Shown: piece by piece, positions 9,961 to 33,417 of the stretch
How positions within the stretch are numbered: the first letter of the stretch is position 1
How the letters are laid out: every line of letters begins with the position of its first letter
Assembly (NCBI GenBank): GCA_045863215.1
Contig: BTUB01000001.1
Coordinates: 1 to 34,247 of the forward strand
Reading direction: 5' to 3'
Source: Candidatus Babeliales bacterium
Lineage (GTDB): Bacteria; Babelota; Babeliae; Babelales; Vermiphilaceae
DNA length: 34,247 bases
Program-made: the position numbers and the translations under genes
The notes under the pieces: generated by a model
Told to the model about the DNA's origin: nothing
Databases searched by the model: none
What the model saw: the letters and a program-made list of their open reading frames with translations, nothing else

Positions 9961-10008
9961 TAAAAATGGAATAGGTAAAATAGACAAAAACGAAAATAGG
10001 AGAGTGAT

Positions 10009-10944: not shown

Positions 10945-10952
10945 TAAAAATG

Positions 10953-10980
10953 GGGCGGGAAGATTTCCCGCCCTTCTTAT
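10953..10980 (+). terminator. intrinsic terminator after the Arg/Gly-rich gene
   Basis: GGGCGGGAA-GAT-TTCCCGCCC (9-bp stem) followed by TTCTTATTT. Confidence 0.5.
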
Positions 10981-10991
10981 TTAGGAATGCC

Positions 10992-11288
10992 GTGAAAAAA
11001 AAATTATATATTTTTCTTTTAATCACCGGAAACATATATGCGATTAATGAGAATTGGTATATGGGTGGGCAACCCTATTATAATTTTGGCTCAAGTTATT
11101 ATAACAATTATGGCCAAAATTATTACTGGGGCGGTGATGGCTGGATATTCAAAACAGGTTATAAAGCTCCCACTGAGCGCTGCTGCAGACGCGTAAAATG
11201 CATTCGACCATGCACCTGGTGCAGAGCATATAGAAAATCTTTACCAATCGAAAATAATAGTTGTTGTAACGGGGTATGCCAACCCTAA
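10992..11288 (+). CDS. small secreted Tyr/Gly/Asn-rich protein with 8-Cys C-terminal module
   Basis: The track start at 10950 lies inside the terminator hairpin. The in-frame GTG at 10992 sits 4 nt after AGGAA and gives VKKKLYIFLLITGNIYA (signal-like). The C-terminus, CCRRVKCIRPCTWCRAYRKSLPIENNSCCNGVCQP, has 8 Cys. Confidence 0.45.
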   Translation: MKKKLYIFLLITGNIYAINENWYMGGQPYYNFGSSYYNNYGQNYYWGGDGWIFKTGYKAPTERCCRRVKCIRPCTWCRAYRKSLPIENNSCCNGVCQP

Positions 11289-11297
11289 GGAGATTTT

Positions 11298-11960
11298 ATG
11301 AAGCACTTGTTTTTACTGCTGGCCATGCTGGCAACAAGTCTATCTATAAATGCCGATCCATTTCCTCATCCGTGTGATGCAAATAGCCGAGTAACTAATA
11401 ATAAGTGTCGCAAAAGTTGCGGTGATGCGTGCGCTATGGCTGCAAAATGCGCCAACAATCATGGCTGCAATGCCAAAGAATGTGTGCCCTTTGCCAACTG
11501 TTGTTTGCAAAGATGTGGGCCCTTCACACGCATACTTCCGGGCGATTATGATTCATATAAGGAAACTAAGCATACTTTTTGGCATGTACCACCCTGCACT
11601 CCACGCAATGATTCAAAATTCAAAGGATATTTATATAAAGGCATGTGGTGGGATAATATGGGTGTACGCTTCTGGGCCTTTAGAAATAGCACTAATAATA
11701 CTATCACTATCCAGGCTTTAAGTGGGGGAGAAATTAAGGATATCCCAGCTGGTGATGTCGCAAACATCAACAGAGGAGAAAGCTATGCCTTTAGAGTGCA
11801 ATCTCCTGCTCGCCGCTTTGAACTCTTTAATAGCGATATGCATCATATTGAAGTGTTTATCAATATCCGGGGAGACTTGGATTATAGGGTTGAGCCTATA
11901 CTGGAAAAAACAGCCAAAAGAGGATCTGTACGCGATCAAGATATAATACCCCGGTTCTAA
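11298..11960 (+). CDS. secreted protein with Cys-rich N-terminal module
   Basis: AAGGAG upstream and signal peptide MKHLFLLLAMLATSLSINA. There are 11 Cys in the first ~60 mature residues (CDANSRVTNNKCRKSCGDACAMAAKCANNHGCNAKECVPFANCCLQRCG), followed by a ~140-aa Cys-free domain. Confidence 0.6.
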   Translation: MKHLFLLLAMLATSLSINADPFPHPCDANSRVTNNKCRKSCGDACAMAAKCANNHGCNAKECVPFANCCLQRCGPFTRILPGDYDSYKETKHTFWHVPPCTPRNDSKFKGYLYKGMWWDNMGVRFWAFRNSTNNTITIQALSGGEIKDIPAGDVANINRGESYAFRVQSPARRFELFNSDMHHIEVFINIRGDLDYRVEPILEKTAKRGSVRDQDIIPRF

Positions 11961-11997
11961 AGAATTCGACGTTTTAAACCCGCAAAGTAGCACATTT

Positions 11998-12029
11998 GGC
12001 CTCTTTTTAGACTATAAAAGGGGCCTTTT
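11998..12029 (+). terminator. hairpin + T-run after gene 11298-11960
   Basis: GGCCTCTTTT ... AAAAGGGGCC (10-bp stem with one G-U pair) followed by TTTT. It overlaps the last codons of the recombinase ORF on the opposite strand. Confidence 0.4.
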
Positions 12030-13637
12030 CATTGCCAAGACTTTACAATTAGAAAAATAAACACTCCCGTAGTATATCAGCCGGTAACGCCATACTATAG
12101 CTGCCAGGCCCCGGTATATGAAGTGTATCAACCCGTAATTTACCGCCCCGTGACAAAAAAACCACACTTTGGGTTCTCTTTTGGCACGCCATACATGACG
12201 ATCAGTACATTCTAGTATCAAATTAAAGGGCGAATGAGCCTCCCAGACGAGCTTTTCATCTTTTAGGCTCAAGTTCTGAAGTATCAGCTTGATTAATTGC
12301 CGTTTTTCCTCAACTTCAGAACTCATAAAAAGCTCATACGCTCGGGAAGTCAGATTCAGAACGTATTTAGCGGTAATATAATAATTGTCTTCTGCTTCTT
12401 GTAATTGCTCAAGGCGAATACTAATATCGGTTACTTGATCACGTAATGAAGTGTAAAATTTGTCATAAGCGCTCTCAGTAATTCTCCCTTTGAGTTTATC
12501 TAGGTAGAGATTATCCATCATCTTGGTGATTGTTTTTTGTTCTTGTATAAGCTTGTTAGTTTCTTTTTGATGGAATTCCATTTTGTCTTGATGAGAAGCA
12601 TTTAGTGTTTCAGTAAGTTCATCAAGAATTTCTGTAGGTAGCTGTAAGTTTTTAAATACAGCGCTCAATTGGCGGGTAATTTCTTCTTCTCGCAGCCATT
12701 TTGCGTCATGCTTGCCATTGTATTGGGTGCAGTGATAATACACATACCCTTTATGTATTTCGGGCGTAATAGATAGGCCGCAATGAGCACATCTAATTAA
12801 TCCGCGATAGATATAGGGCTTACCGGCAAATTTATATTTCTTTTTAGCAAAACTATTTTTCACAGCTTGAACATCCTCAAAAAGGGTGATGCAGATAATG
12901 GGAGGATATTTATGGGGATATAGTTTGCCTTTCACCAGCATTTGACCGTGGTAAAAAGGATTAGCCAGAACCTTACCCAAGTATCCTTTAGGCCATACGA
13001 TGCCATAATCAGCTTTTAATTTATTACAGGCCAGCTCTAATGAATAGGCGCCAGTGCCATACCATTCGAATACTTTTTGAATGATACGGGATTCATACTC
13101 ATCCACAACAACATCTGATTTACCATCTTCAGTTTTAACATTCTTATATCCGTAGGGAGCTTTAGCTAGCCATTCCCCACGGCGGAGCTTAGCCTCAATC
13201 GCGCGGCGCACGTTATCACTAATAGCATCTGAATAATATTTTGCTAATCCTAAGCTGATACCAAAATGAAATTTCTCAGCAGCAGAAATACGGCTATTGA
13301 TTATTTGCCCATCAGATACAAAATGCAATTCAACCTCATCTCGCAAAGCTTTTTCATACAGTTCAGAAACCCGTTTATCAAACATATTACGAGATAGGCG
13401 ATCAACCTTATCGCAGCATACGGCAATCTTTTGCTTTTGCTCGATTACAAAATCAAGAATGCCATCAAACTCATCGCGTTGATTTTTATAAGCACTTTCA
13501 TCAAAGCTAAAGCTTTTAAGGATCTCTAAGCTTTTATTTTCGCAATATCTTTCTAGGCGCAGCATTTGCGCAGGAAGTGAATTGCCGGCTTCCTTTTGTT
13601 CTTCAGTGCTTACACGGGCGATGAGAATAGCTTTCAT
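12012..13637 (-). CDS. large serine recombinase (resolvase domain + recombinase domain + zinc ribbon + coiled coil)
   Basis: The N-terminus MKAILIARVSTEEQ carries the catalytic Ser motif. Other elements are VDRLSRN, the recombinase-domain block PYGYK, the zinc ribbon CAHCG...YYHC and a long coiled-coil region. The last ~60 residues (VWFFCHGAVNYGLIHFIYRGLAAIVWRYRLIYYGSVYF...) are compositionally aberrant, so the true C-terminus is uncertain. Confidence 0.9.
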   Translation of the reverse strand: MKAILIARVSTEEQKEAGNSLPAQMLRLERYCENKSLEILKSFSFDESAYKNQRDEFDGILDFVIEQKQKIAVCCDKVDRLSRNMFDKRVSELYEKALRDEVELHFVSDGQIINSRISAAEKFHFGISLGLAKYYSDAISDNVRRAIEAKLRRGEWLAKAPYGYKNVKTEDGKSDVVVDEYESRIIQKVFEWYGTGAYSLELACNKLKADYGIVWPKGYLGKVLANPFYHGQMLVKGKLYPHKYPPIICITLFEDVQAVKNSFAKKKYKFAGKPYIYRGLIRCAHCGLSITPEIHKGYVYYHCTQYNGKHDAKWLREEEITRQLSAVFKNLQLPTEILDELTETLNASHQDKMEFHQKETNKLIQEQKTITKMMDNLYLDKLKGRITESAYDKFYTSLRDQVTDISIRLEQLQEAEDNYYITAKYVLNLTSRAYELFMSSEVEEKRQLIKLILQNLSLKDEKLVWEAHSPFNLILECTDRHVWRAKREPKVWFFCHGAVNYGLIHFIYRGLAAIVWRYRLIYYGSVYFSNCKVLAMKRPLL

Positions 13638-13818
13638 GAATATGTACCTGCTGTATGGTTGAAAAGTTTAGAACCGTAAGCAGTGTAATAAGAACAGAGA
13701 AATTTTCCAGAACCAATATACGTCCATCCATTTAATAGACATAAAGCACCAATACTGCGTTTTAAATTATAGCTGCGCATAAATTGCGTGTAAGTATATA
13801 AATAAAAATACCCGAAAA

Positions 13819-13856
13819 GGGGAAAGTGGGGGCTTGTGGGGGAGTATATTGTGGGG
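13819..13856 (+). other. G-quadruplex-type motif / triple GTGGGG repeat in the recombinase-nuclease divergent intergenic region
   Basis: GGGG-AAAGT-GGGGG-CTTGT-GGGGG-AGTATATTGT-GGGG: four G-runs of 4 or more with loops of 5, 5 and 10 nt, in an otherwise AT-rich spacer. Confidence 0.4.
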
Positions 13857-13996
13857 TCTATGCTGGCTTGGTCTTATAATAATTTCAAATAGAAACTTAA
13901 TGCCGTTTGGTACCCGATATTCGCTCAAGAGTTTATATTTTTTTAGATTAAGATAAAATAAATACAAAGGTTATAATCATTGTAAATGCAGGTTAT

Positions 13997-14812
13997 ATGA
14001 TTTCCAAATACAATCCTCAAAGAAAGCGAAATCTATTTTCTTTCTTTTCAGATAAGGCATATAAAATTAGTCGTTCAAAAATCGAAGATTTTATAAAATG
14101 TCCCCGATGCTTTTATTTGGATAGAAAATGCGGCACTAAGCAGCCACCATCTTTTCCATATACTCTCAATAATGCGATTGATGCTCTTTTAAAAAAAGAA
14201 TTTGATCAATATAGATTGAAAGAGGAAAGGCATTCTTTATTGATTCAGCATGGCATTGATGCGATTCCTTTTTCACATCCTGATTTAGAAGAATGGCGAG
14301 ATAATTTTAAGGGAATTAAATTTCATCATATCGCTACCAATTTAATTATTAGTGGGGCCATGGATGATATTTGGATTAAGCCTGATGGCGAACTAATTGT
14401 TGTTGATTTTAAAGCAACTAGTACAACCAAAGAGATTACTCTTGAAAAAAGGGATGCTTATAAAAGACAGCTAGAAGTCTATCAATGGTTGTTACGTCAA
14501 AATGGATTTAAGGTTTCCAATATTGGTTATTTTCTAATTTGCAATGGAGATTCAAGCGAAGCTGGATTCACGGGCAAACTTTCTTTTGATTTTTTATTAC
14601 TTCCACACGAAGGGAATGACTTTTGGATCGAAGATGCTTTAGTGCAAATAAAAGATTGTCTTGGCAAGAATACCATGCCTGCTATGTCAGAGAATTGTGA
14701 TTACTGCAAGTATTGGGAAGCTGTTAAAAAGCATATGTATTCCCATAACTTGTTACTGGAAAATTATTCCCGCGCACTTCCGAGATCAATACAGAAATTA
14801 TTTAGATTATGA
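13997..14812 (+). CDS. PD-(D/E)XK nuclease, Cas4/RecB-like with four-Cys cluster
   Basis: GAMDDIW (motif D), LIVVDFKAT (D-x-K) and QLEVYQWLL (Q-x3-Y) occur in the order typical of RecB/Cas4-family nucleases. An N-terminal C-P-R-C plus a C-terminal C-D-Y-C fits a Cas4/AddB-like Fe-S or Zn site. Confidence 0.7.
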   Translation: MISKYNPQRKRNLFSFFSDKAYKISRSKIEDFIKCPRCFYLDRKCGTKQPPSFPYTLNNAIDALLKKEFDQYRLKEERHSLLIQHGIDAIPFSHPDLEEWRDNFKGIKFHHIATNLIISGAMDDIWIKPDGELIVVDFKATSTTKEITLEKRDAYKRQLEVYQWLLRQNGFKVSNIGYFLICNGDSSEAGFTGKLSFDFLLLPHEGNDFWIEDALVQIKDCLGKNTMPAMSENCDYCKYWEAVKKHMYSHNLLLENYSRALPRSIQKLFRL

Positions 14813-14962
14813 TGTTTAAGAGATTTCAAAAGTAATACAAAAATAATGATAAGAATTCTTTATTATTACTATTTAAACAATAGTATACTTAGATACATAG
14901 CATATACTTTTTTATTTTTAGCGATTTTCTCTATTGTGTATCAAAGAGCAGGAGATTCTTTC

Positions 14963-15871
14963 ATGTTACAAACAAGCAAAAGTTCAACGAACAATGAACA
15001 AGTTACGTTTATTGACCTTTTTGCGGGAATTGGAGGATTTCATGTTGCATTACATCAGCTGGGTGGCAATTGTGTATATGCAAGTGAGTGGGATGAACAT
15101 GCGCGTAAAACCTATGAAGCAAATTTCTCCAAATTAAGTCCTGAATTATTTAAAGCAGGCTTATTTAGGGGCGATATTACACTGGATGAGAATCAGGCTT
15201 GTATCCCTGAAAATACAGATATTTTGTGTGCAGGTTTCCCATGCCAGCCCTTTAGCCAAGCAGGTGTTAAAAAGGGGTTCAATGAAACCAGAGGTACACT
15301 TTTTTTTGAAATAGCAAAAATAATAAAAGATAAGCGGCCCAAAGCCATTTTTCTTGAAAATGTACGTGGTCTTTTAAATCATGACAATGGAAAAACATTC
15401 GAAGTTATTCGCAATATCTTAGAAATTGAACTTAATTACACCATTTACTATAAAATCATAAAAGCTTCTGATTATGGATTGCCTACTCACAGGCCTCGTA
15501 TTTATATCATAGGCTTTAGAAGCGATGTTAAATACAAAAAAGATTTTAAGTTTCCTAATCCAATCCCTTTAAAATTTAACATGTCAGATATATTTAATAT
15601 GCCCTGCAATAAAGATGTCGGATATACTTTGAGAGTTGGTGGTAAGGGTTCAGGTATAAACGATAGAAGAAATTGGGATTCATATTTGGTAGGTGGAGCT
15701 GTTAAAAAAATAACGCCCTACGAAGGGAAAAAAATGATGGGTTTCCCTGACGATTTTATGTTTCCTGTAACTAATGCTCAGGCAATGAAACAATTAGGAA
15801 ATAGTGTTGCGATTGATCCGATCAGATTAACATCAGAAAAAATAATCGAAATTTTAAGGAAGTCTGCATGA
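14963..15871 (+). CDS. DNA (cytosine-5) methyltransferase, M.HpaII-like (probable CCGG specificity)
   Basis: The track start at 14846 adds a hydrophobic extension. The ATG at 14963 sits 8 nt after AGGAG. Motif I is FIDLFAGIGGF, motif IV GFPCQPFSQAG, motif VI FLENVRGL, motif VIII RPRIYIIGF and motif X QLGNSVA. The blocks SEWDE.A.KTYEANF and TRGTLFF match what I recall of M.HpaII. Confidence 0.92.
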   Translation: MLQTSKSSTNNEQVTFIDLFAGIGGFHVALHQLGGNCVYASEWDEHARKTYEANFSKLSPELFKAGLFRGDITLDENQACIPENTDILCAGFPCQPFSQAGVKKGFNETRGTLFFEIAKIIKDKRPKAIFLENVRGLLNHDNGKTFEVIRNILEIELNYTIYYKIIKASDYGLPTHRPRIYIIGFRSDVKYKKDFKFPNPIPLKFNMSDIFNMPCNKDVGYTLRVGGKGSGINDRRNWDSYLVGGAVKKITPYEGKKMMGFPDDFMFPVTNAQAMKQLGNSVAIDPIRLTSEKIIEILRKSA

Positions 15872-16932
15872 TACTTAAAAAAGGCAATAAAGGTGAATGG
15901 AGTGAGCTTTACGCCTTATTAAAAATATTATCTGATAAAGTTCTTTATTCTGCCGACGAAAATCTTGCATTAATTCCGAAAGCTTTTATAAAAGTACTTA
16001 ATGTTAAGCTGGAAGAGAAAGCTAATTTAATATACGAAATAGATCATATTAATGATCGAATTATCGTAAAAGAATATAATAATGTTATAGCATCTATACC
16101 TATTATTAAAATTTCTTCTAAATTATCGGCTATCCTAAAAAAAATTAAAATTGGCGCAGCATCTAAAGGCGCTTTTGAATTACTTGAAGCTCAAGAGCTC
16201 ATGACTGAAATTCATGCCAAAAAGCTTAAATCGGCAAGCACTTTAAAGGCTGATATGTATGTTACATATGAGGATCCAAGTACAGGTATGCAGCCGACAG
16301 AAGGGTTTAGTGTAAAGTCGCAGATAGGTGGAATGTCTACTTTGCTGAATGCTTCAGGTTCGACGAATTTCGAATTTAAAATAATTGAATCCATGCATTC
16401 TGAAAAAATAGGAAAAAAACCCTTAATAAGCTTAGAAAACATTTTGGCACCCAATCAGGTATTAGAATTTGTTGGTGTTTCTAATTCGAATTTTAAAGAG
16501 AATTTAGAAATGATTGATTCTCATATGCCATTAATTATTGCTGTAATGATAAAAGGATATTATTTGGGGTTTGGAAAAACTATTTCTCAATTAACCGAAT
16601 ATATTAAATTAATTAACCCATTAGAAAAATCTAAGTCGTCACATTTTTATGAGCATAAGATTCAAGAATTATTAAGAGCTGTTGCTTTTGGTATGCAGCC
16701 TGCAAAAATATGGACGGGTAATTATGAGGCACATGGCGGATATATTATCGTAAAAAAAAATGGTGAGTTAGCTTGTTATCATACTTATGACAGGGATAGT
16801 TTCGGTAAATTTCTCTATTTAAATACCAAATTTGAAACGCCCAGTCGTTCTAAACATTACTTTGGCGAGATTGAGCAAAGAAACGGCTCTAAATTTATTA
16901 AACTTAATTTGCAAATCAGATTTACGAGCTAA
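15868..16932 (+). CDS. type II restriction endonuclease, HpaII family
   Basis: The start overlaps the methyltransferase stop (ATGA). At 354 aa it is the size of R.HpaII. The N-terminal block KGNKGEWSELYALLKILSD matches the HpaII-family N-terminal signature as I remember it. An M.HpaII-like methylase lies upstream and vsr downstream. Confidence 0.72.
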   Translation: MILKKGNKGEWSELYALLKILSDKVLYSADENLALIPKAFIKVLNVKLEEKANLIYEIDHINDRIIVKEYNNVIASIPIIKISSKLSAILKKIKIGAASKGAFELLEAQELMTEIHAKKLKSASTLKADMYVTYEDPSTGMQPTEGFSVKSQIGGMSTLLNASGSTNFEFKIIESMHSEKIGKKPLISLENILAPNQVLEFVGVSNSNFKENLEMIDSHMPLIIAVMIKGYYLGFGKTISQLTEYIKLINPLEKSKSSHFYEHKIQELLRAVAFGMQPAKIWTGNYEAHGGYIIVKKNGELACYHTYDRDSFGKFLYLNTKFETPSRSKHYFGEIEQRNGSKFIKLNLQIRFTS

Positions 16933-16933
16933 T

Positions 16934-17353
16934 ATGGAAAATGCTCCAAATATAAGAAGCAAAATGATGGCAGCAGTAAAAAATAAAAATACTGCTCCTG
17001 AAATTAATGTACGTAAGGCTTTATACGCTAAGGGCATGCGATACAAATTGCATAATAAGAAATTACCTGGCAATCCTGATTTAGTATTTGCTAAATACAA
17101 AGCAGTTATATTTATTAATGGATGTTTTTGGCATAAACATAATTGCCGCCTGGTTCAAATTCCCCAAACAAATCAAGAGTTTTGGATTGATAAATTGAAT
17201 AAAAATGCCTACAGAGATGAAATGAATCTTGCTAAATTGCAAGAAATTGGATGGCGAGTAAAAGTTATTTGGCTTTGTGTTTTAAAAAATAAAAAGACTT
17301 TTTCTTCAGCAGAACAACTAGATGATATTGTTCAGTGGATAAAGCAATCATAG
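16934..17353 (+). CDS. vsr: very-short-patch repair endonuclease
   Basis: The track ORF starts at 16832, inside the REase gene. The ATG at 16934 lies 1 nt after the REase stop. The blocks NTAPEINVRKALYAKGMRYKLH, LPGNPDLVF and VIFINGCFWHKHNC are the canonical Vsr blocks. Confidence 0.9.
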   Translation: MENAPNIRSKMMAAVKNKNTAPEINVRKALYAKGMRYKLHNKKLPGNPDLVFAKYKAVIFINGCFWHKHNCRLVQIPQTNQEFWIDKLNKNAYRDEMNLAKLQEIGWRVKVIWLCVLKNKKTFSSAEQLDDIVQWIKQS

Positions 17354-26153: not shown

Positions 26154-26182
26154 TTGACAAATTTATCAATTCAGTCAATATT
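26154..26182 (+). promoter_or_regulatory. candidate sigma70-type promoter for the lipoprotein operon
   Basis: TTGACA (26154-26159), a 17-nt spacer and AATATT (26177-26182), about 50 nt upstream of the ATG at 26235. Confidence 0.3.
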
Positions 26183-26234
26183 AAAGCATCTATAGATTTA
26201 AACCTGTGAACTATACAATACACAGGGAGGGGTT

Positions 26235-27005
26235 ATGCTAAAAAAACATTACAGTATCTGGCTATTTTTGGGCTCCTTTTTATTAATGCTGCCCAGCTGC
26301 AAGCGCCCCTCTTATATGTGTCGGAATTTTGAATCTTTGACCCCGGCATTTTCCGGACAACAAACCAAAGAAAATGTAACGGTTAAAATAGCCCCCCTAT
26401 CTAAACAAGAATCTCAGGCCTTTTTTGATCATCGAGGTCATCGCTTGCATTCAAAGCGAAAGCCGTTGCGACCAGTAATGGTATCCATCCAAAATGAAAG
26501 CGATAAAACATATACGTTTGATCTAAAAAGTATGGAAATTAAACTTGCCAACCCACGCAGCGCGGCACGTAGAATGTATGGCCATACCAGTCGTCGCATT
26601 ATAGCCCCCCTTTTATTAGGCTCGTTGGGCGCCTCGATCTGCTTTTTTGGAGCAGCGTATTTAGTAATTTTGGGTACTATCCAGCAAGTTGCTATGCCTG
26701 CGCTCGTAAAAGCAGGATATAGCCTCTTGGGCATTTCCGGCTTAATAGCTGTTACTGCTCCGGCAACTAGCTACTACCAAGGATCTTTATCCTATGCAGT
26801 TAACAAACAAATTGATCAGGATATTTCCCAAAAAACGATTCACGGTCCTCTGAGTATCGCTCCAAGAAATAATGCAAGTTTTTTGATTTTTTGCAAAAAT
26901 CGCTCTGTGCCATTGAAATGGAACGTTATTTTAAATGAACAAGAAACCCAACAGCCCTTATTATTTGCAGTACATTTAAATAACGAAGGAGTATCCCATG
27001 CGTAA
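26235..27005 (+). CDS. lipoprotein, paralogue 1 of a four-member family (internal TM hairpin)
   Basis: GGGAGGGG upstream and lipobox LLMLPSC. It carries the family blocks TKENVTV...LSKQESQAFFDHRGHRL...PVMVSIQNESDKTYTFD, then two hydrophobic helices, then NKQIDQDI...SIAPRNNASFLIF. Confidence 0.7.
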   Translation: MLKKHYSIWLFLGSFLLMLPSCKRPSYMCRNFESLTPAFSGQQTKENVTVKIAPLSKQESQAFFDHRGHRLHSKRKPLRPVMVSIQNESDKTYTFDLKSMEIKLANPRSAARRMYGHTSRRIIAPLLLGSLGASICFFGAAYLVILGTIQQVAMPALVKAGYSLLGISGLIAVTAPATSYYQGSLSYAVNKQIDQDISQKTIHGPLSIAPRNNASFLIFCKNRSVPLKWNVILNEQETQQPLLFAVHLNNEGVSHA

Positions 27006-27963
27006 TCTTAAAATGATGGCACTCTCAGCACTCTTTGTTTGTACACCAATCATCGCCCATCTTGAAAATGTGGTATATCTTTTTGCGCATGGTTTATATA
27101 ACGATTATACCCTTGCTTATTACTATGAAAATATTCGCCGCCCGCATGAACTGTATATTATCAACAATAATGAATTGGGCTTGGGCCATATTCCTCATCA
27201 TTCACATCGCTGGAGCATTGATGATCAAGATGATATGCGCTTGTGGATCATCCAACAACCGCTCTATACGTTCAACTTTCCTGATGCTACACGAAAAGGA
27301 TTTGACGGGAATGAAACGAGCCTGGGGCAAGAAAATGAAATTAAGGCGCTCGCCAATGCCTATGAATATATTAAGCATAATACTATCGTGGTGATGGGCT
27401 ACTCGCGCGGAGCAGCAACGGTACTCAATTGGCTCGGCACAAAAAAACCTACTCATATCGCGGCAGCAATTGTAGAATCTCCCTATGATTCTATTACAAA
27501 TGCGTTGGATTTTTTCTGCAAAACTGCTGGTGTAGGCTGGATTCCTTACTCAATTTTATATACCTCTCCAAATCTCTTTTTTGGAAAGTTTAATCATAAG
27601 GGAATATTTCCCATCAAAGTAGTACAACAGATTGATCCGAATATACCTTTACTTATAATCGCATCCTTAGAAGATGCCCTGGTTCCGGCACACAACACGG
27701 CCAATATTTATACCAGACTTTTGCAATATGGCCATCAGCATGTTTATTTTCTTCTGTTGGAAAAAGGTACCCATGGCTATCTCTTAGAAAGCTATGATGC
27801 ACATATTTATCTTAACACCGTGCATGCATTTTATAAAAAATATGATCTGCCGCACAATAAGGCATTTGCGGCCCAAGGAGAAAAAATTCTGGCTCAGTGC
27901 CAACCCTCTAAAAAAGAAGTTGATGAAGCATTACAAAATAAAAAAAGTTTCATCAAAAGATAA
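26998..27963 (+). CDS. secreted alpha/beta serine hydrolase
   Basis: AAGGAG upstream, and the ATG overlaps the paralogue-1 stop by 8 nt. The N-terminus is signal-like. VVMGYSRGAAT is a G-x-S-x-G elbow, ASLEDALVP a candidate Asp and KGTHGYL a candidate His. Confidence 0.7.
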   Translation: MRNLKMMALSALFVCTPIIAHLENVVYLFAHGLYNDYTLAYYYENIRRPHELYIINNNELGLGHIPHHSHRWSIDDQDDMRLWIIQQPLYTFNFPDATRKGFDGNETSLGQENEIKALANAYEYIKHNTIVVMGYSRGAATVLNWLGTKKPTHIAAAIVESPYDSITNALDFFCKTAGVGWIPYSILYTSPNLFFGKFNHKGIFPIKVVQQIDPNIPLLIIASLEDALVPAHNTANIYTRLLQYGHQHVYFLLLEKGTHGYLLESYDAHIYLNTVHAFYKKYDLPHNKAFAAQGEKILAQCQPSKKEVDEALQNKKSFIKR

Positions 27964-27979
27964 TTTTTAGAAGGACACC

Positions 27980-28702
27980 ATGTTATTTACTCGTATTAGC
28001 TTGGCAACTAGTGTTACTTGCTTACTGCTATTGCCCGCATGTGGCCCACACTATCATAGAAATCAACTTCCGCAGATAACTAAAACTTCTGTTTCGCACG
28101 AAACTAAAAATAATGTCACGATATCTGCACATCATATGAATCGCGCTGATATTCAGCAAACATTTGGCACCCGCGGGCGCAAACTGGGCTACTATGGCTT
28201 GTGTCCGATTCAGCTTTCAATAAAAAATAATAGTACTGATACATTCATCTTCGATCCAATGCACACCACACTGCCAGCGGTGAATCACGCGGATGTTGTC
28301 TATTGCTTGCAAAATCATACCACACGCAATACCGCAGGATTAGTGGGATTAGGACTATTGGCCACTGGCGCCATTTGCATATATACCCTTCCTTTTGCAC
28401 TGTGGTATTATGCAACCGGCATCATCACCGCCGGCCTATATATCGGCTTGGGCACTGCAACCGGAACTTTACTATTAACCCCACCTGTGGCCGTTTATTA
28501 TGCAAAGCAGGCACACCGCGCTAATCGCAGAATATATCACAATATTAAAGAGGTAGCCGTAACTCATACACGCGCAATTGCCCCAGGGCAAGAGTTGGAT
28601 GTGATTTTATTTACCAAAAAAGAAAACTGTAAAAAAGATTTTTCCCTGAGTTTGATTAATGAAGCAACACAAGAAGTAACTAGATTTAATTTTATTCATT
28701 AA
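27980..28702 (+). CDS. lipoprotein, paralogue 2
   Basis: Lipobox LLLLPAC. It has TKNNVTI...MNRADIQQTFGTRGRKL...PIQLSIKNNSTDTFIFDP, two hydrophobic helices and ANRRIYHNIKE...IAPGQELDVILF. It starts 16 nt after the previous gene. Confidence 0.7.
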   Translation: MLFTRISLATSVTCLLLLPACGPHYHRNQLPQITKTSVSHETKNNVTISAHHMNRADIQQTFGTRGRKLGYYGLCPIQLSIKNNSTDTFIFDPMHTTLPAVNHADVVYCLQNHTTRNTAGLVGLGLLATGAICIYTLPFALWYYATGIITAGLYIGLGTATGTLLLTPPVAVYYAKQAHRANRRIYHNIKEVAVTHTRAIAPGQELDVILFTKKENCKKDFSLSLINEATQEVTRFNFIH

Positions 28703-28715
28703 TTGGAACAGCTAA

Positions 28716-29450
28716 ATGAAACAACTCTTAAAATTATTATTTATCTTTTTAGTTATCGCGGTATTACCAGCTTGTGGTCCACATTATCGTAAAAAATCTC
28801 TTTCTTATCTACGCTCCATCAAGCCAGGATACAGCCAAACAAAAGATCAAATGGCTTTAGAAATTACTCAGCTAAACGAGAATGATACCAATGCTTTATT
28901 TGATGGCCAAGGTCGAAAATTAAAAAAAATAGCTCGTCCTCTTTACTTTAGAATTATAAATCAAAGTAACTATAGTTTTTCACTCAATCCACAATCAATC
29001 ACCTTAGCTCAAGTAAGCGTTGAAGAACTCCAGGAAGCAATATGTTATAAAAAACTACTCCCTATTGCGGGAATAGTAGGCGCCGGAGCTTTATACATTC
29101 CACTCTTTTGGATTCATACTTTTGGAATTTATGCCGCAGTAATATACAATTATGTTTTTTTAACTGCTTGTTTGTGCGCATCCGGTGCATTACTCCTACT
29201 TGCCACCTCTTTTATTATTCCTGCAACAATGATTAGCAGCGTGAAATATTCAAACAACGTTAATCATGCCAATCAAGATTTACATGAAGATATTCACGAA
29301 AAAACATCGGGAAATTTTTTAAAAATCCCTGCAGATACCACTCAAGAATTCTTATTCTTCGCTAATTCAAAGCAGTTCAAGAACAACTTTGATGTAACTT
29401 TTACTGAAAAAATAACCCAAAAACCTTTAACTTTTAACGTAACCCTCTAA
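28716..29450 (+). CDS. lipoprotein, paralogue 3
   Basis: Lipobox IAVLPAC. It has TKDQMAL...LNENDTNALFDGQGRKL...PLYFRIINQSNYSFSLNP, two or three hydrophobic helices and ANQDLHEDIHEK...IPADTTQEFLFF. It starts 13 nt after the previous gene. Confidence 0.7.
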   Translation: MKQLLKLLFIFLVIAVLPACGPHYRKKSLSYLRSIKPGYSQTKDQMALEITQLNENDTNALFDGQGRKLKKIARPLYFRIINQSNYSFSLNPQSITLAQVSVEELQEAICYKKLLPIAGIVGAGALYIPLFWIHTFGIYAAVIYNYVFLTACLCASGALLLLATSFIIPATMISSVKYSNNVNHANQDLHEDIHEKTSGNFLKIPADTTQEFLFFANSKQFKNNFDVTFTEKITQKPLTFNVTL

Positions 29451-29460
29451 ATGGAGTTCT

Positions 29461-30159
29461 ATGAAACACTTGTTTATTTTACCACTTATACTAATTGCAC
29501 TTTTAGTGCTCCCAGCATGTGTGCCTTCCTATCAACAAAAGCAACTCAAGCACTTGCAAAGCAACACCAACATCTTTGAAGAAACCAAAGATGGAGTATT
29601 GCTCCGTGTGCATCCACTCAATAAAAAAGAATCGAATGATCTTTTTGATGGCCGCGGTTATTATTTATTACGCAATAAAAACCCATTGCAAGCGATTCAA
29701 ATCACGATCTTTAACAAAACTGATCATGCGTATATCTTAAACCCGGAAATGATCGATCTATCATTGGTGCGCCCGGAAGATGTGATTAAAGCAATCGAAT
29801 ATGATCGCACCGCGCAAACGGTAATTCCTCTTTTTATCGGCACTATGGGAATTATCGCGCGTAATGCCTCGGCGGGCAATTCTAAATATGAGCAAAACTG
29901 CGCCACTGCAGATTCAGTGGTAATCGGCGCCGGAACCGCAGCAACAGCACTTGCGGGCAATCAAGAAGCAAAAAATGCTAATGATGTACTTGCTGATGAC
30001 GTGCATGAAAAATTGCTCAATGCTGATGGATTAGTAATTAAACCGTTTGAAAAAATCAGCACCATAATTGTAGTAGAAAAAGAGATGATGCGCCCGGCAT
30101 TCATGATGAGTTTGCAACGTGGCGATCAATCATTACTTACTTATGAAGTAATGTTATAA
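29461..30159 (+). CDS. lipoprotein, paralogue 4 (TM hairpin replaced by Gly/Ala-rich amphipathic insert)
   Basis: Lipobox LLVLPAC. It has TKDGVLL...LNKKESNDLFDGRGYYL...PLQAIQITIFNKTDHAYILNP and ANDVLADDVHEK...IKPFEKISTIIVV. It starts 10 nt after the previous gene, and a terminator follows. Confidence 0.7.
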   Translation: MKHLFILPLILIALLVLPACVPSYQQKQLKHLQSNTNIFEETKDGVLLRVHPLNKKESNDLFDGRGYYLLRNKNPLQAIQITIFNKTDHAYILNPEMIDLSLVRPEDVIKAIEYDRTAQTVIPLFIGTMGIIARNASAGNSKYEQNCATADSVVIGAGTAATALAGNQEAKNANDVLADDVHEKLLNADGLVIKPFEKISTIIVVEKEMMRPAFMMSLQRGDQSLLTYEVML

Positions 30160-30183
30160 CTTTTTTCATCACATCAATTTATA

Positions 30184-30212
30184 AGGCCCCAGTAATTCTG
30201 GGGCCTTTTTTT
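30184..30212 (+). terminator. intrinsic terminator closing the lipoprotein operon
   Basis: AGGCCCCAG-TAATT-CTGGGGCCT (9-bp stem) followed by TTTTTTT. Confidence 0.75.
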
Positions 30213-30288
30213 ATAAATCTTTACTATCTGGTGGAAAAAAAATGTAACTGTGCTTAAATAGTACAAATTATTCCTACAGGAGCCTTCT

Positions 30289-33003
30289 ATGAAAATTCAT
30301 CCAAGAAAATTGCTTGGGCTTTTGATTATAGTCTTTATTATTCCTTACAAGGTTTTGGCAGTCGCTCTAACGAATTGCATTCCTTATCTTATAGAAATTG
30401 CCAAGCAAGCTTTATTAAGTTTAGCGCTTATTACTGGCTATTTAGTAAATACGAAGCCCGAATTCCCTTCGCAAGCAGATTCAATTGAGCATCAGGGAAT
30501 AAAAAATACTTATCTAAATCAATTTCTGCAAGATATAGCTAAACAAACGGGGGTGATAATAACACCTGAAACATTAAATCAACTGAGCAATGCTGGCATA
30601 CATCATGATTACCAAAAACTTGAAAGTCTTTTGGCGACATTACAGCCCACTGATAAGAACTTAAGCTCTTCCGCTGGTACTTTTAGCCTACAAAAATCTG
30701 AAATTAATCCCTATGCGCTTGCTAGAGGAATTAAACGATTTGAACAGCCAGGAGCTTATACACAAATAACAAACGGCAGCATACCAGACTATAACTCAAC
30801 AATAACAAGGGTTCAAACGTCTTCGACTGCATCAAAAAATACAGCTGATCCTGTCTTAACTGATATTCATTCTTTGCAATACAGTAATTTCGGTGAATAT
30901 TCAAATGAACTATCTATTCCTAATCCAGCTAACCCCACACTTGTTCTGCATGGTAATCATCAAAGCCCTCAAAAGAATCAAAGTGCTGCTCGATATATGC
31001 ATCAATTGATGCATCAGCAGGCCGTATACTCTCAAGGGAAAGCGTTTCATGAGTGGGAAAGAGCATTTTTTTCAGTCGCTGCTCACTTTCATAACTCTAC
31101 GCTCCGCCAACAGTTAAAAAAACATGTTCAAAGTTATCACAAAGTTCTTCATGATGCATGTCAACTTGGAGCATCAGCTCAAGCCATACAAGCACAAACG
31201 CAAATCGCTCTTCAAGGATTACCGCTTCCTGGTTTTTTACATGAATTTTCTGAAGTTCTTCAAGAAAAAGCCTCACGCATCTGTTTTAAACATAATGGCA
31301 CCTGGAAAGGTATTGAGACTTCAACTCAATTAGAAGAACTTAAGCAAGTATGCCAGGCTTATCAAACTCTTTTAGATAAACTCTCGTGGCATCTTGAATG
31401 GGAAAATTCAACCGATGCTCAAGACTGCATTGAAGAACTTTATTTGTTGGATCAAGGTAGAGGAAATTGGGCAGGTAGATTTTTTTCATGGATGGGAAAC
31501 TTTTTTGATAGCGAAGCTATTTCTTTGCAAGAATTTCAATCTCGAATTGCTACCAATTCTTTTAATAAACAAACATTTACTGCACTTGAACTCTTAGAAA
31601 ACAAAGAGTTCAAATTGGCACGATTACCGCTTGAACATATGGCACATTCTGCCAAAACAGTTAATGAGGTCTTGCTCCATCAAGCCCTTCTTAAACAATA
31701 CCAAGAAAAAATAGCATTCCACTATGGCAATACTAATATCCCTCTCAAATATCAAGACGATCCAGTCTTTTGGATGTATAAACCAACAACTGAACACATG
31801 CAATTCGATGATCCGGCACTAAGATCAATCGAAAATCATTTAATAATCCGCGATACAATATACAATGAAATATTGAATACTATTTGCAAAAAGCAACCGC
31901 CAACCCCATTCATTCGAAATCTCGCCTATACTCTTATAGATAAATTAAATGACCCTATTGCCCTCATTAATCATCTTGAGTTTTTAAGCTCAGATAGCCA
32001 AAATCCTGAAATCCAACAAGCTTGCAACGCTTTCTATGATAAAGGCGTTTTAACTCTATTTGGGCTTACTAAACAGGCCTCTGCCTCTCGCGTGCCAGTC
32101 TCAGATCTACTTAATCGATCCGAATATGCTCACATAAGAAACGCTTTGAATAAACTATTATTGGTAGATGCTCGCAGTGAGCAAAGCAAAAGATCGTTGC
32201 AGCTAGTGTTTGATTGTATACCACATGCATGTACCGATACTACTTTTTCAAAAGACTATCAAAATATCATTAAAGCAATCACTCAAGCCCATATTGACGC
32301 TAAAGCTCCTAAAGAGATTCTGCACATTAGTTGTTTTCCCATCAATCCGACAAAGGATTTACATATAACTCTTTTAAAAGCAATGTCCAAAGCGGCACAA
32401 GAAGACCTGGGAAAAGCCAATCCTGCAGCAAATTCACCCCTTACCACACGTGAGGCTTGGGCTTGCATACAAAAAGTGCAAGAGCTAGAAAATAGCGGTG
32501 AAACTGCTGAAGCAAACGCCTTAGCTAATACATATCTCAAGGGCTATCTCGATGAAAAAATGCCAACTCAAAAGTATATAAAGCCAATTATTATTACTGC
32601 CGCGACCGCCGGAATTTGGTTTGCCAATTCGCAAGAGCAACCAAAACAAACACCTAAAATCTCCCCGCAATTCTCTGTGAACTCCCCTGATCCCGATGAT
32701 GAGGAAAGCGAGGAGATAAAAAAATATAGAAGCATACTGAAAGAAATTTTAAAAGATGCAATACAAGGAAATAAAACTCGTGGCAAATCAAAAATTTATG
32801 AAAAATTAGGAGGATTTAAAAAAGCAGTGAAAGATTTTTTAAGGTTGAATCCCACTGAAATAAAAGATATTCCTACCGGAAAAACCGGAAAACTTCCAGA
32901 TGAAAATCATGTAAATGTACGCACAAAAAGTGATGATGGAAGGCCAACTTTAGAAATTATTAACTTAATAAATAAAAACAGAATTAAAATCAGATATAAC
33001 TAA
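30289..33003 (+). CDS. large (904 aa) membrane protein with helical body, late TM segment, acidic linker and toxin-like ~100-aa C-terminal module
   Basis: AGGAG upstream. There are N-terminal TM segments (LLGLLIIVFIIPYKVLAVAL; LLSLALITGYLV) and a late TM segment (IKPIIITAATAGIWFA), then the linker SPDPDDEESEE. The C-terminal module is GNKTRGKSKIYEKLGGFKKAVKDFLRLNPTEIKDIPTGKTGKLPDENHVNVRTKSDDGRPTLEI...IKIRYN. Confidence 0.65.
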   Translation: MKIHPRKLLGLLIIVFIIPYKVLAVALTNCIPYLIEIAKQALLSLALITGYLVNTKPEFPSQADSIEHQGIKNTYLNQFLQDIAKQTGVIITPETLNQLSNAGIHHDYQKLESLLATLQPTDKNLSSSAGTFSLQKSEINPYALARGIKRFEQPGAYTQITNGSIPDYNSTITRVQTSSTASKNTADPVLTDIHSLQYSNFGEYSNELSIPNPANPTLVLHGNHQSPQKNQSAARYMHQLMHQQAVYSQGKAFHEWERAFFSVAAHFHNSTLRQQLKKHVQSYHKVLHDACQLGASAQAIQAQTQIALQGLPLPGFLHEFSEVLQEKASRICFKHNGTWKGIETSTQLEELKQVCQAYQTLLDKLSWHLEWENSTDAQDCIEELYLLDQGRGNWAGRFFSWMGNFFDSEAISLQEFQSRIATNSFNKQTFTALELLENKEFKLARLPLEHMAHSAKTVNEVLLHQALLKQYQEKIAFHYGNTNIPLKYQDDPVFWMYKPTTEHMQFDDPALRSIENHLIIRDTIYNEILNTICKKQPPTPFIRNLAYTLIDKLNDPIALINHLEFLSSDSQNPEIQQACNAFYDKGVLTLFGLTKQASASRVPVSDLLNRSEYAHIRNALNKLLLVDARSEQSKRSLQLVFDCIPHACTDTTFSKDYQNIIKAITQAHIDAKAPKEILHISCFPINPTKDLHITLLKAMSKAAQEDLGKANPAANSPLTTREAWACIQKVQELENSGETAEANALANTYLKGYLDEKMPTQKYIKPIIITAATAGIWFANSQEQPKQTPKISPQFSVNSPDPDDEESEEIKKYRSILKEILKDAIQGNKTRGKSKIYEKLGGFKKAVKDFLRLNPTEIKDIPTGKTGKLPDENHVNVRTKSDDGRPTLEIINLINKNRIKIRYN

Positions 33004-33015
33004 CTAGGATAAAAA

Positions 33016-33417
33016 ATGCAAGAAACATGGACCCGCTGGGAACCAATAACTCGCCTATCACACAATTATTATTGTGAATCACTAATAGACACTCCAGATG
33101 ACGGATTTCAAATACGTTTATTCGATGAAGAAGGTAAAAAACTTTTAATTTCATTTTCTGAATCAGTAGATGCATATCGTAGTACGGATGGCAGCTTTTC
33201 ATATGATACAATTGAAAGTTTAGAAAAAAAATATGGTAAAGAATTTTATTCTACATGGAGTTTTTTTAAAATTGAAAATTCTGAATTTTTAGAATGGATT
33301 AAAAAAGAATCACAGGGAACATTTGAAATATATCAATTGCAGCATTTTTGCTTTTGGACAATAGATTGCAGAATTGATGTAATTAATAATTACGATCCCG
33401 AAATAAAGCATATTTAA
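33016..33417 (+). CDS. small cytoplasmic protein, immunity-protein-like position
   Basis: 133-aa ORF starting 12 nt after the 904-aa gene. It has no signal peptide and is acidic. Assignment is by position and size only. Confidence 0.5.
   Translation: MQETWTRWEPITRLSHNYYCESLIDTPDDGFQIRLFDEEGKKLLISFSESVDAYRSTDGSFSYDTIESLEKKYGKEFYSTWSFFKIENSEFLEWIKKESQGTFEIYQLQHFCFWTIDCRIDVINNYDPEIKHI

Follow-up and report, generated by a model that had tools for sequence, protein, structure and literature searches.

What brings four diverged lipoprotein genes and the gene of an exported hydrolase together in one tight cluster of a Candidatus Babeliales bacterium, and do their products act together? We addressed this question in a 34,247-nucleotide stretch of its genome (contig BTUB01000001.1 of assembly GCA_045863215.1; hereafter the window). 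All five same-strand ORFs of the original prediction (LP1, HYD, LP2, LP3 and LP4) were found where it had placed them, and the features of the cluster are as follows, with the basis of each in parentheses.

26154..26182, plus strand: promoter-like site TTGACA-17-AATATT upstream of LP1 (consensus scan, 10/12 matches)
26203..26226, plus strand: inverted repeat CCTGTG-N12-CACAGG, lying downstream of the -10 site and ahead of the ribosome-binding site (conservation)
26235..27005, plus strand: LP1, 256 aa, lipobox LPSC, predicted split beta-sandwich with two hydrophobic helices (ORF, alignment, hydrophobicity)
26998..27963, plus strand: HYD, 321 aa, predicted exported alpha/beta hydrolase with triad S136/D226/H259 and elbow G-Y-S-R-G (Pfam, invariance, AF2, Foldseek)
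27980..28702, plus strand: LP2, 240 aa, lipobox LPAC, architecture as LP1 (ORF, alignment, hydrophobicity)
28716..29450, plus strand: LP3, 244 aa, lipobox LPAC, the paralogue chosen for the structure model (ORF, AF2)
29461..30159, plus strand: LP4, 232 aa, lipobox LPAC, Gly/Ala-rich non-hydrophobic segment instead of the hairpin (ORF, hydrophobicity)
30183..30214, plus strand: intrinsic-terminator-like hairpin and T run ending the operon (stem prediction, folding energy)

The measured intergenic gaps of 16, 13 and 10 nt lie within the claimed range of 10-16 nt, and the 8-nt LP1/HYD start/stop overlap (ATGCGTAA) is as had been described. The promoter candidate proposed upstream of the set was also recovered and is conserved in relatives: its -35 hexamer is identical across the window, L091, L006 and L008 and its -10 hexamer is kept save for single substitutions, though coding dS against these lineages is saturated or high (>1 against L006). 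Both 6-nt arms of the inverted repeat downstream of it are invariant in four lineages, with a spacer of 11-14 nt that differs in sequence and length, and the repeat may form a 5'-UTR hairpin or an operator. At the other end, the strong terminator that had been predicted consists of a 10-bp stem (30183-30207, 7 GC pairs) followed by TTTTTAT; its folding energy of -20.6 kcal/mol (z = -7.25) was equalled in 0 of 200 shuffles. The tiny gaps, the overlap, the promoter-like site and the terminator together bear out the earlier view of one operon-like unit that includes an exported serine hydrolase. The 3' end of LP1 holds the Shine-Dalgarno site and the overlapping start of HYD, and this arrangement (GGAG, and a HYD ATG overlapping the LP1 stop) is kept in 8 loci that span LP1 identities to the window down to 36% (L010). 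As judged from this conserved signal, LP1 and HYD are translationally coupled.

The four lipobox ORFs are related far beyond chance, as claimed, with pairwise BLASTP identities of 25-31% (E 4.8e-12 to 3.1e-21), and their alignment reproduced the shared N- and C-terminal motifs that had been listed. The expected lipoboxes, LPSC in LP1 and LPAC in the other three, each follow a hydrophobic h-region, as the sequence criterion for signal peptidase II substrates (a signal peptide ending in [LVI][ASTVI][GAS]C) asks of bacterial lipoproteins; Pro at -2 of the lipobox is non-canonical under the PROSITE PS51257 rule. Of 131 full-length members of the family, 119 have a lipobox-like motif, and among these 131 relatives LP[GSA]C is the commonest form, with the canonical LSGC, LAGC, LTGC and LVAC alternating at the same position. 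LP1-LP4 are accordingly predicted lipoproteins whose signal peptide ends in a lipobox.

Kyte-Doolittle profiles agreed with the description of two hydrophobic helices that are replaced by a Gly/Ala-rich insert in the fourth copy. LP1-3 carry a hydrophobic core of 55-65 residues with a 19-residue maximum of 1.88-2.08, and across the family the median hairpin hydrophobicity is 2.15, with 91% of members at 1.8 or above; the uncharged core has a median of 62 residues and K/R on both flanks. No segment is better conserved than the hairpin in an alignment of LP1 orthologues. With this hydrophobicity, the helices of LP1-3 are predicted to be able to cross a membrane. In LP4, no segment exceeds 1.5 (maximum 1.29 versus the family median of 2.15), and the insert is conserved in two orthologues (L006 and L008), which points to a hairpin turned into a conserved soluble Gly/Ala-rich segment.

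The AlphaFold2 model of LP3 (pLDDT 88.9, pTM 0.77) gave high-confidence support to the suggestion that the N- and C-terminal halves fold as one beta-sandwich broken by a hairpin: strands within 39-90 and 202-243 form the sandwich, and the hairpin, where pLDDT is only 67-79, consists of helices 115-142 and 147-196. A Foldseek search with the model core returned Ig-like sandwich matches only. The only recurrent, though weak, likeness of the sandwich is to the DUF4352/DUF5067 Ig-like lipoprotein domains (B. subtilis YjhA, PDB 3cfu): a DUF4352 structure ranked 38th among the PDB matches (TMt 0.49) and several BFVD DUF4352/DUF5067 entries were also returned, all below significance, and hmmscan matched DUF4352 (PF11611) in 2 of 73 members (best E 0.007, below significance) and in none of the window copies. 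These weak Ig-like and DUF4352 similarities come back in three independent tests. Many DUF4352 proteins are lipoproteins; to our knowledge, their domains are contiguous, with no inserted transmembrane hairpin. With LP3 as the modelled case, each LP is therefore predicted to consist of a single Ig-like (DUF4352-like) beta-sandwich, into whose chain two long helices are inserted. In line with the claim that the LPs lie outside characterized families, profile searches of Pfam, NCBIfam and PDB sequences gave no match, and at E≤1 the four paralogues and 73 family members matched neither Lif, Tli nor any other named Pfam family. An exhaustive profile search recovered at least 1003 clusters (50% identity) of relatives with the same length. 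LP1-LP4 go back to old duplications within a large family of envelope lipoproteins that has no counterpart in the family and structure libraries searched.

The closest known architecture is that of TraT (PF05818; PDB 9fs5, 9fsm and 9e2v), which shares a length of about 240 aa, an N-terminal lipobox Cys, small-residue-rich helices and a short-turn helix pair splitting a globular domain; the two membrane helices inserted in a lipoprotein globular domain that typify TraT are predicted in LP3 at 115-142 and 147-196. Membership in PF05818 was nevertheless rejected by sequence, profile and fold. Neither the four paralogues nor 73 family members matched Pfam TraT at E≤1, hhalign gave probabilities of 7.6% and 11.7% in alignments that reached no further than the signal peptide and the beginning of the N-terminal region, and the three TraT chains were not among the best 50 Foldseek matches of the LP3 model. 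TraT, which forms decameric rings in the outer membrane, also differs in being plasmid- or conjugation-associated and in having no hydrolase partner, whereas the LP locus is chromosomal and gave no match in plasmid records. SlyB and other glycine-zipper 2TM outer-membrane lipoproteins likewise combine a small-residue-rich helical hairpin with a beta-rich domain, but the SlyB hairpin precedes the beta domain whereas the LP hairpin splits it, and LP hairpins are longer and more hydrophobic. The glycine-zipper Pfam families (SlyB/Pcp; PF05433, PF13488 and PF13441) had no match at E≤1 among the paralogues and 73 members.

The G-x-S-x-G alpha/beta hydrolase with a signal peptide that had been predicted after copy 1 was found with its triad, fold and signal peptide. 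HYD matched Pfam Peptidase_S9 at 36.2 bits (cutoff 22.6) over profile positions 52-209 only; the S9 prolyl oligopeptidase family proper was rejected because HYD, a single alpha/beta domain of 321 aa, has no N-terminal beta-propeller. G134, S136, R137, G138, D226 and H259 do not vary among 56 sequences, and the AF2 model (pLDDT 93.7, pTM 0.90) shows one alpha/beta domain with the G-x-S-x-G elbow and Ser-Asp-His in the canonical order of alpha/beta hydrolases. Foldseek returned 823 PDB matches at E≤1e-3, and all matches listed were alpha/beta hydrolases. The neighbours are small esterases and acylaminoacyl-peptidase catalytic domains, a generic likeness at a TM-score of about 0.5. HYD resembles such enzymes (P. 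furiosus Pf2001, PDB 5g59; P. horikoshii PH0594, PDB 4hxe) in fold, elbow and triad order at only 16-19% identity, and differs from them in being exported, in carrying an additional beta-hairpin at residues about 52-73 and in its conserved C-terminal helices, which contain a QCQP motif. An N-terminal signal peptide is present in HYD and in 72 of 79 scorable homologues. HYD is thus predicted to be an exported Ser-Asp-His esterase, and it is conserved at the level of housekeeping genes: its identity to L006 is 81% versus 83% for zwf and gnd, and its dN/dS is 0.05-0.06.

The linkage of lipoproteins and hydrolase, expected to recur in other genomes, does so at a pgi-zwf-gnd-flanked locus in L001, L006, L008, L010, L091 and the cultured isolate Noda2021, which holds two LP and two HYD genes together, as well as in the short metagenome contigs L012-L015. 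In part, this adjacency may reflect shared descent. The relative L003 has an LP at the same locus with HYD missing, the linked subfamily of hydrolases looks far smaller than the LP family with its 1003 or more clusters, and HYD-family genes stand in tandem arrays of their own at other sites (L020 and L065). Only one distant HYD homologue, L060, has an LP neighbour, in the order HYD-LP; since most distant homologues have none, obligate partnership with the esterase cannot be a general property of the LPs.

The original prediction had also called the four LPs diversifying paralogues, a wording that the comparisons do not support. Each of LP1, LP2, LP3 and LP4 has its own L006 orthologue at 45-72% identity, versus about 25% between paralogues (for LP2, 66% to L006, 51% to L001 and 86% to L091), and dN/dS of 0.05-0.24 for every gene indicates purifying selection, with LP3 the fastest-evolving copy (45-48% identity to L006, dN/dS 0.235) and LP4 at 0.106. 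Because the duplications are old, all genes are under purifying selection and HYD is conserved like zwf and gnd, these are not fast-diversifying paralogues. Between two near-identical strains, however, the LP genes show much higher local divergence than their flanks, and a thioredoxin gene takes the place of LP3-LP4; the locus is thus variable at strain level and mosaic between close strains. LP3 is missing from L091.

We tentatively propose, as the most plausible reading though not a probable one, that a membrane-embedded lipoprotein scaffold docks the periplasmic esterase, a mechanism that we infer. The lipid anchor and hairpin would hold the sandwich flat against the periplasmic face of a membrane, likelier the inner one given the hydrophobicity of the hairpin. 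LP1 would dock or position the esterase made along with it, at a ratio of roughly 1:1, and HYD would act there on membrane-bound acyl esters, with envelope lipids, host-derived lipids or acylated envelope components as candidate substrates. LP2-LP4 might join a hetero-oligomer as further subunits, packed through their conserved helices rich in small residues, or might serve as adaptors for additional exported proteins. The earlier suggestion of a part in lipid or surface remodelling or in host interaction is conjectural. The host is probably an intracellular, parasitic member of the Dependentiae (TM6, Babeliales-like). Dependentiae are diderms with Sec export and an encoded Lol system (PMC6561590). 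Counting against an inner-membrane hairpin, the K/R-rich flanks on the predicted periplasmic side oppose the positive-inside rule; counting against the reading as a whole are the L003 locus, the size of the LP family relative to the HYD subfamily, the missing LP neighbour of most distant HYD homologues, the share of common descent that may lie in the adjacency, the generic structural neighbours of HYD and the hairpin pLDDT.

Those basic flanks on the domain side would pose no problem for insertion into the outer membrane, and a rather unlikely alternative takes this course: the LPs would be TraT/SlyB-like lipoproteins, sorted by Lol, whose hairpins insert and whose protomers form rings serving as surface shields, exclusion factors or outer-membrane stabilizers, HYD being simply co-transcribed. 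Lol is present in Dependentiae (PMC6561590), and the TraT-like layout, in which a globular domain behind a lipidated Cys is interrupted by two helices with a very short uncharged turn (PMC11733297, PMC12658005), the small residues of the LP helices and the TraT-like amphipathic Gly/Ala segment of LP4 all fit, as do copy numbers and alleles that differ between strains, expected of surface molecules. Yet hhalign, Pfam and Foldseek gave no support for TraT homology, and the Ig-like sandwich differs from the TraT core, an LptE-like alpha/beta fold with a long beta-hairpin (PMC12658005). The LP hairpins are also much more hydrophobic than the outer-membrane hairpin of TraT (2.15 versus 1.63), which should cause inner-membrane retention during Sec export, and rings leave the conserved LP1-HYD translational coupling unexplained.

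In Lif/LipA foldase and Tle/Tli pairs, a membrane-anchored, periplasm-facing partner is encoded beside an exported GxSxG hydrolase and expressed along with it, and the arrangement of the operon-like LP-HYD cluster is similar. It seems quite improbable, however, that HYD serves as a toxin, in the form of an exported lipase or esterase, with the LPs as periplasmic immunity proteins and LP2-4 as an orphan immunity array as in T6SS Tle/Tli loci. The array of diverged, periplasm-facing LP paralogues beside the hydrolase and the strain-level mosaic would suit such a system, and the locus abuts a polymorphic-toxin-like gene whose L006 orthologue has Ntox21 and precedes a tandem trio of candidate immunity genes. 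But the housekeeping-like rates of HYD are unlike those of toxin-immunity pairs, HYD holds a fixed chromosomal site across deep lineages with no match in plasmid records, and L003 has an LP without HYD. A T6SS Tle/Tli pair, which evolves fast, has an effector with no Sec signal and is linked to VgrG/Hcp/PAAR genes, was rejected: HYD evolves slowly and is furnished with a Sec signal peptide of its own instead of a domain for contact-dependent delivery, and no T6SS component was matched by Pfam among the window ORFs scanned. Finally, the genes could be unrelated neighbours, the LPs belonging to a general Dependentiae envelope family (adhesin, transporter accessory or structural) and HYD sharing an ancestral operon without interaction. 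We regard this as unlikely: a very large LP family mostly away from HYD, HYD arrays of its own and the L003 locus are in its favour, but the Shine-Dalgarno site and overlapping start/stop are kept in 8 loci despite saturated synonymous divergence, Noda2021 keeps its two LP and two HYD genes together, and L060 independently pairs HYD with an LP.

The predicted five-ORF layout was borne out by coordinates, alignment and folding energy, as were its lipoboxes, paralogy, intergenic gaps, overlap, promoter candidate and terminator, and the operon is real and conserved. It comprises genes for four paralogous lipobox lipoproteins (LP1-LP4) and, after LP1, for an exported alpha/beta hydrolase (HYD).

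Features of the lipoprotein-hydrolase operon
26154-26182, promoter-like site TTGACA-17-AATATT
26203-26226, inverted repeat CCTGTG-N12-CACAGG, between the -10 hexamer and the ribosome-binding site
26235-27005, + strand, LP1 ORF
26998-27963, + strand, HYD ORF
27980-28702, + strand, LP2 ORF
28716-29450, + strand, LP3 ORF
29461-30159, + strand, LP4 ORF
30183-30207, strong terminator (-20.6 kcal/mol, z = -7.25)

The intergenic gaps are 16, 13 and 10 nt, and LP1 shares its last 8 nt with HYD (ATGCGTAA). At this junction a GGAG Shine-Dalgarno lies within the end of LP1 and an ATG overlaps the LP1 stop, features kept in all eight loci examined, including one (L010) whose LP1 is 36% identical to that of the window. 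Both arms of the inverted repeat were invariant across four lineages, with a spacer variable in sequence and length; the repeat could serve as an operator or form a hairpin in the 5' UTR.

Each of the four lipoproteins opens with a hydrophobic signal sequence whose last residues are LPSC or LPAC. The proteins were colinear in alignment, and their significant relatedness was confirmed by pairwise E-values of 4.8e-12 to 3.1e-21 at identities of 25-31%. The original prediction could name no family for them, and none emerged from Pfam, NCBIfam, PDB sequence or Foldseek searches: LP1-LP4 matched nothing in Pfam and NCBIfam at E≤0.1, a profile search of PDB sequences returned no match at E≤10, and Foldseek with a model of LP3 found nothing at E≤1e-3 in the PDB and BFVD. 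No Pfam family recurred among 73 members, and ten distant relatives yielded nothing significant in Pfam/NCBIfam, their one SH3_2 match (E 9e-4) falling under the Pfam cutoff and sitting in the N-terminal extension of a single relative. In an exhaustive HMMER search of 1.84 billion representatives, clustered at 50% identity, at least 1003 clusters passed E≤1e-3, of which 524 also passed E≤1e-10 and 82 passed E≤1e-30; almost all were end-to-end matches of 230-270 aa. A word-indexed search gave only 37 close relatives and, with the 73-sequence alignment, nothing beyond close relatives already known. The novelty thus lies in the family itself; for the architecture, a single recent analogue exists.

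A lipobox-like motif was found in 119 of the 131 full-length members, most frequently as LP[GSA]C. Because canonical LSGC, LAGC and LTGC occupy the same position in other members, we argue that a genuine lipobox can accommodate the unusual proline at -2. The sole invariant column of the 73-sequence alignment is the asparagine of I-x-N-x-(S/T), at the end of a sandwich strand (N87 in LP1), where the four paralogues read NES, NNS, NQS and NKT. This motif is probably a structural turn; a PglB glycosylation site was considered for N-x-S/T and set aside because position -2 carries no D or E.

The prediction of a split domain with an inserted hairpin was supported by modelling. LP3 was modelled with AlphaFold2 from an alignment of 37 sequences (mean pLDDT 88.9, pTM 0.77); strands at 39-90 and 202-243 scored 92-98, and between them lie two long helices (115-142 and 147-196) scoring 67-79. 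The weak Foldseek matches in the PDB were Ig-like sandwiches (gamma-adaptin ear, PCuAC, ApaG and YjhA/DUF4352) that span both halves, with about 220 alignment columns on targets of about 120 residues, as expected of a single sandwich with an insertion. BFVD gave only weak DUF4352 and DUF5067 matches, and 2 of the 73 members touched Pfam DUF4352 (E 0.007); on these sequence and model comparisons, the sandwich may be a remote relative of DUF4352.

The hydrophobic core of the hairpin extends over 55-65 residues in LP1-3. Family-wide, the median length of the uncharged core is 62 residues, with basic residues flanking both sides and a very short uncharged turn; the maximum hydrophobicity over 19 residues has a median of 2.15, reaching at least 1.8 in 91% of members, compared with 1.63 for the outer-membrane hairpin of TraT, a surface-exclusion lipoprotein (PF05818). 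The hairpin (CFFGAAYLVILG...GYxxLGxSG) is the best-conserved stretch of LP1 orthologues, which suggests a specific packing of its helices. LP4 is an outlier: it has a Gly/Ala-rich segment in place of the core and no Kyte-Doolittle window above 1.5 (maximum 1.29); just 0.8% of the family falls below 1.5. Since this polar insert is kept in orthologues and the gene is under purifying selection, LP4 is a stable derivative rather than a decaying copy, and probably one that does not span the membrane.

HYD is a predicted exported serine esterase. It matched Pfam Peptidase_S9 above threshold (36.2 bits) and lacks a beta-propeller; G32, G134, S136, R137, G138, D226 and H259 are invariant in 56 homologues, and 72 of the 79 scorable homologues carry an N-terminal signal peptide. 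Its AlphaFold2 model (pLDDT 93.7, pTM 0.90) had as Foldseek neighbours small esterases and the catalytic domain of acylaminoacyl peptidase, at a TM-score of about 0.5 and 16-19% identity. The named homologues belong to 'Candidatus Dependentiae bacterium Noda2021' and 'Candidatus Babeliales bacterium'. Two cysteines, C174 and C301 (in QCQP), are conserved between the window and L001, a related locus in MAG MFD09495.bin.1.131, and could form a periplasmic disulfide. The HYD orthologue of L001 (8774-9688) starts 9 residues ahead of the first beta-strand, without a signal peptide and with merely 9 in-frame codons upstream; this may be a frameshift or assembly-indel artefact, or a real loss.

Linkage of lipoprotein and hydrolase, also part of the original prediction, recurred in six other genomes or metagenomic loci when the cluster divergent from pgi-zwf-gnd was compared. 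One of these is the cultured Dependentiae isolate Noda2021, with a complete genome (AP025250.1; PMC8812299), whose pgi-zwf-gnd-flanked locus holds two family lipoproteins and two hydrolases. Together with the named HYD homologues, this synteny makes Dependentiae (TM6) the most likely source of the window.

Gene order in the cluster divergent from pgi-zwf-gnd
Window and L006: LP1-HYD-LP2-LP3-LP4
L091: LP1-HYD-LP2-Trx
L008: LP1-HYD-LPx-LP2(split)-LP4
L001: LP1-HYD-LPb-LP2
L010: LP1-HYD
Noda2021: LP-LP-HYD-HYD
L003: LP alone

A metagenome scan with the hydrolase profile yielded 79 loci, in which a lipoprotein adjoined HYD in 4 of 4 loci at ≥56% HYD identity and, at ≤38%, solely in L060 among about 70 loci. 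Distant HYD-family members (about 30-38% identity) were found in tandem arrays of three to five with no lipoprotein neighbour (L020, L023, L048, L051, L065 and others), so the esterase family has expanded independently. In L008 (9496-10205), and also in L009, overlapping ORFs of 136 and 105 aa take the place of an intact LP2 orthologue, which is either a pseudogene or affected by a frameshift in the assembly. A thioredoxin-fold gene lies just 3' of the lipoprotein cluster in L001 (11990-12424), L008 (11452-11880), L091 (8167-8601) and L003 (14426-14854) and is absent from that position in the window; in L001 and L008 its N-terminus is hydrophobic and signal-like.

The paralogues had been described as diversifying, a view that the evolutionary rates do not support. 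Between the window and L006, identity was 81% for HYD, 72% for LP1, 66% for LP2, 45% for LP3 and 65% for LP4, with 83% for both zwf and gnd; between the window and L001, it was 75% for HYD, 53% for LP1, 68% for zwf and 71% for gnd. With dN/dS at 0.05-0.24 across all genes compared, these values indicate that the paralogues are old and individually conserved, not rapidly diversifying. The near-identical strain L091 differs from the window in a mosaic fashion. Between 21.2 and 26.3 kb, nucleotide identity lay mostly at 97-100%, and the 213 nt between pgi and LP1 were identical; past 26.3 kb, identity was 82-88% for LP1, 91-96% for HYD, 84-87% for LP2 and 73% for the downstream toxin-like genes, and a thioredoxin gene stands in place of LP3-LP4. 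Synonymous divergence climbed in step, being 0.03-0.08 at first, then 0.25-0.46 and finally 1.2. The pattern suggests a recombination hotspot and would be explained by allele replacement through recombination.

TraT is the closest architectural match to the LP family: this lipoprotein, about 240 aa long, has a globular domain interrupted by two helices and forms an outer-membrane decamer (PMC11733297, PMC12658005). With a query sequence verified against PDB 9fs5, homology to TraT was rejected by hhalign, Pfam and Foldseek ranking, leaving it as an architectural analogue only; the core folds also differ, being LptE-like in TraT and, as modelled, Ig-like in the LP family. Unlike TraT, the family showed no plasmid context, since tblastn with LP2 found no match in plasmid records. 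SlyB-type glycine-zipper lipoproteins, DUF4352, Lif/LipA and Tle/Tli were also considered, and the LP family could be assigned to none of them.

We tentatively favour, at somewhat less than even probability, a membrane-held lipoprotein in which LP1 docks or regulates the esterase and LP2-4 are subunits or adaptors. Two anchors would hold the sandwich at the periplasmic face of a membrane, more likely the inner one, because such hydrophobic hairpins should exit the Sec translocon laterally, making Lol extraction impossible; LP1 would then dock or regulate the esterase at the membrane surface, and LP2-4 would be additional subunits or adaptors. The basic flanks of the hairpin conflict with the positive-inside rule for the inner membrane and leave room for a TraT/SlyB-like insertion in the outer membrane; a ring of that type, with the hydrolase incidental, is possible but rather unlikely. 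That the lipoproteins and HYD have no functional interaction at all is somewhat less probable still; the LP1/HYD junction is, as read from sequence, the strongest evidence of deliberate co-production of the two. A lipase-immunity module is the alternative that we consider most doubtful.

Beyond the docking reading, we regard as quite improbable a more far-reaching proposal: a new, possibly Dependentiae-specific class of membrane-embedded lipoproteins that would form a ring or alpha-helical barrel, as homo- or hetero-oligomers via the hairpins, and recruit an essential exported esterase, with LP3 and LP4 as strain-variable accessories tuning host interaction. Such an assembly would be analogous to TraT and SlyB yet of independent evolution and, if real, an envelope machine not known before, with which obligate intracellular bacteria would process lipids of the host or of the envelope.

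The Dependentiae, a candidate phylum of obligate parasites of protists, are widespread and known from only a few isolates. A large part of their exported proteome lacks annotation (PMC6561590). The analysis defines one large lipoprotein family, of at least 1003 clusters (50% identity), absent from Pfam and NCBIfam. Its predicted topology is unusual in joining a lipid anchor to an Ig-like sandwich that a transmembrane hairpin interrupts. The family also adds an independent example of a lipoprotein with an inserted helical membrane hairpin, an architecture familiar only recently through the TraT structures. One subfamily is tied to a housekeeping-grade exported esterase via conserved translational coupling, which offers a testable way into Dependentiae envelope biology and possible host-lipid use. 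If the family is merely structural, it would be a new DUF-level family, of annotation value and unsurprising.

The window as a whole has a GC content of 37% and gave no rRNA, tRNA or Rfam match; besides the operon it carries genes for an ankyrin-repeat protein and for pentose-phosphate enzymes, together with many ORFs that matched nothing in Pfam.

Other features of the window
12012-13637, - strand, large serine recombinase
PD-(D/E)XK nuclease, C5 cytosine methyltransferase and HpaII-type restriction endonuclease (14846-16932)
30289-33003, + strand, gene for a 904-aa protein that has an N-terminal signal/TM and matched nothing in Pfam
33016-33417, + strand, 133-aa gene
About 33500 to the window end, AAA ATPase gene

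The last three genes co-travel in L006, L010 and L091. The L006 orthologue of the 904-aa protein (60% identity over residues 1-849) has a C-terminal Ntox21 toxin domain, and directly after it come three candidate immunity genes, tandem paralogues of about 175 aa; the 904-aa protein therefore resembles a polymorphic toxin whose C-terminal tip has been exchanged. GC content spikes to 0.51 at 10-11 kb, against about 0.37 elsewhere in the window, and the region from about 10000 to 17000 is probably an integrated mobile element with a restriction-modification system.
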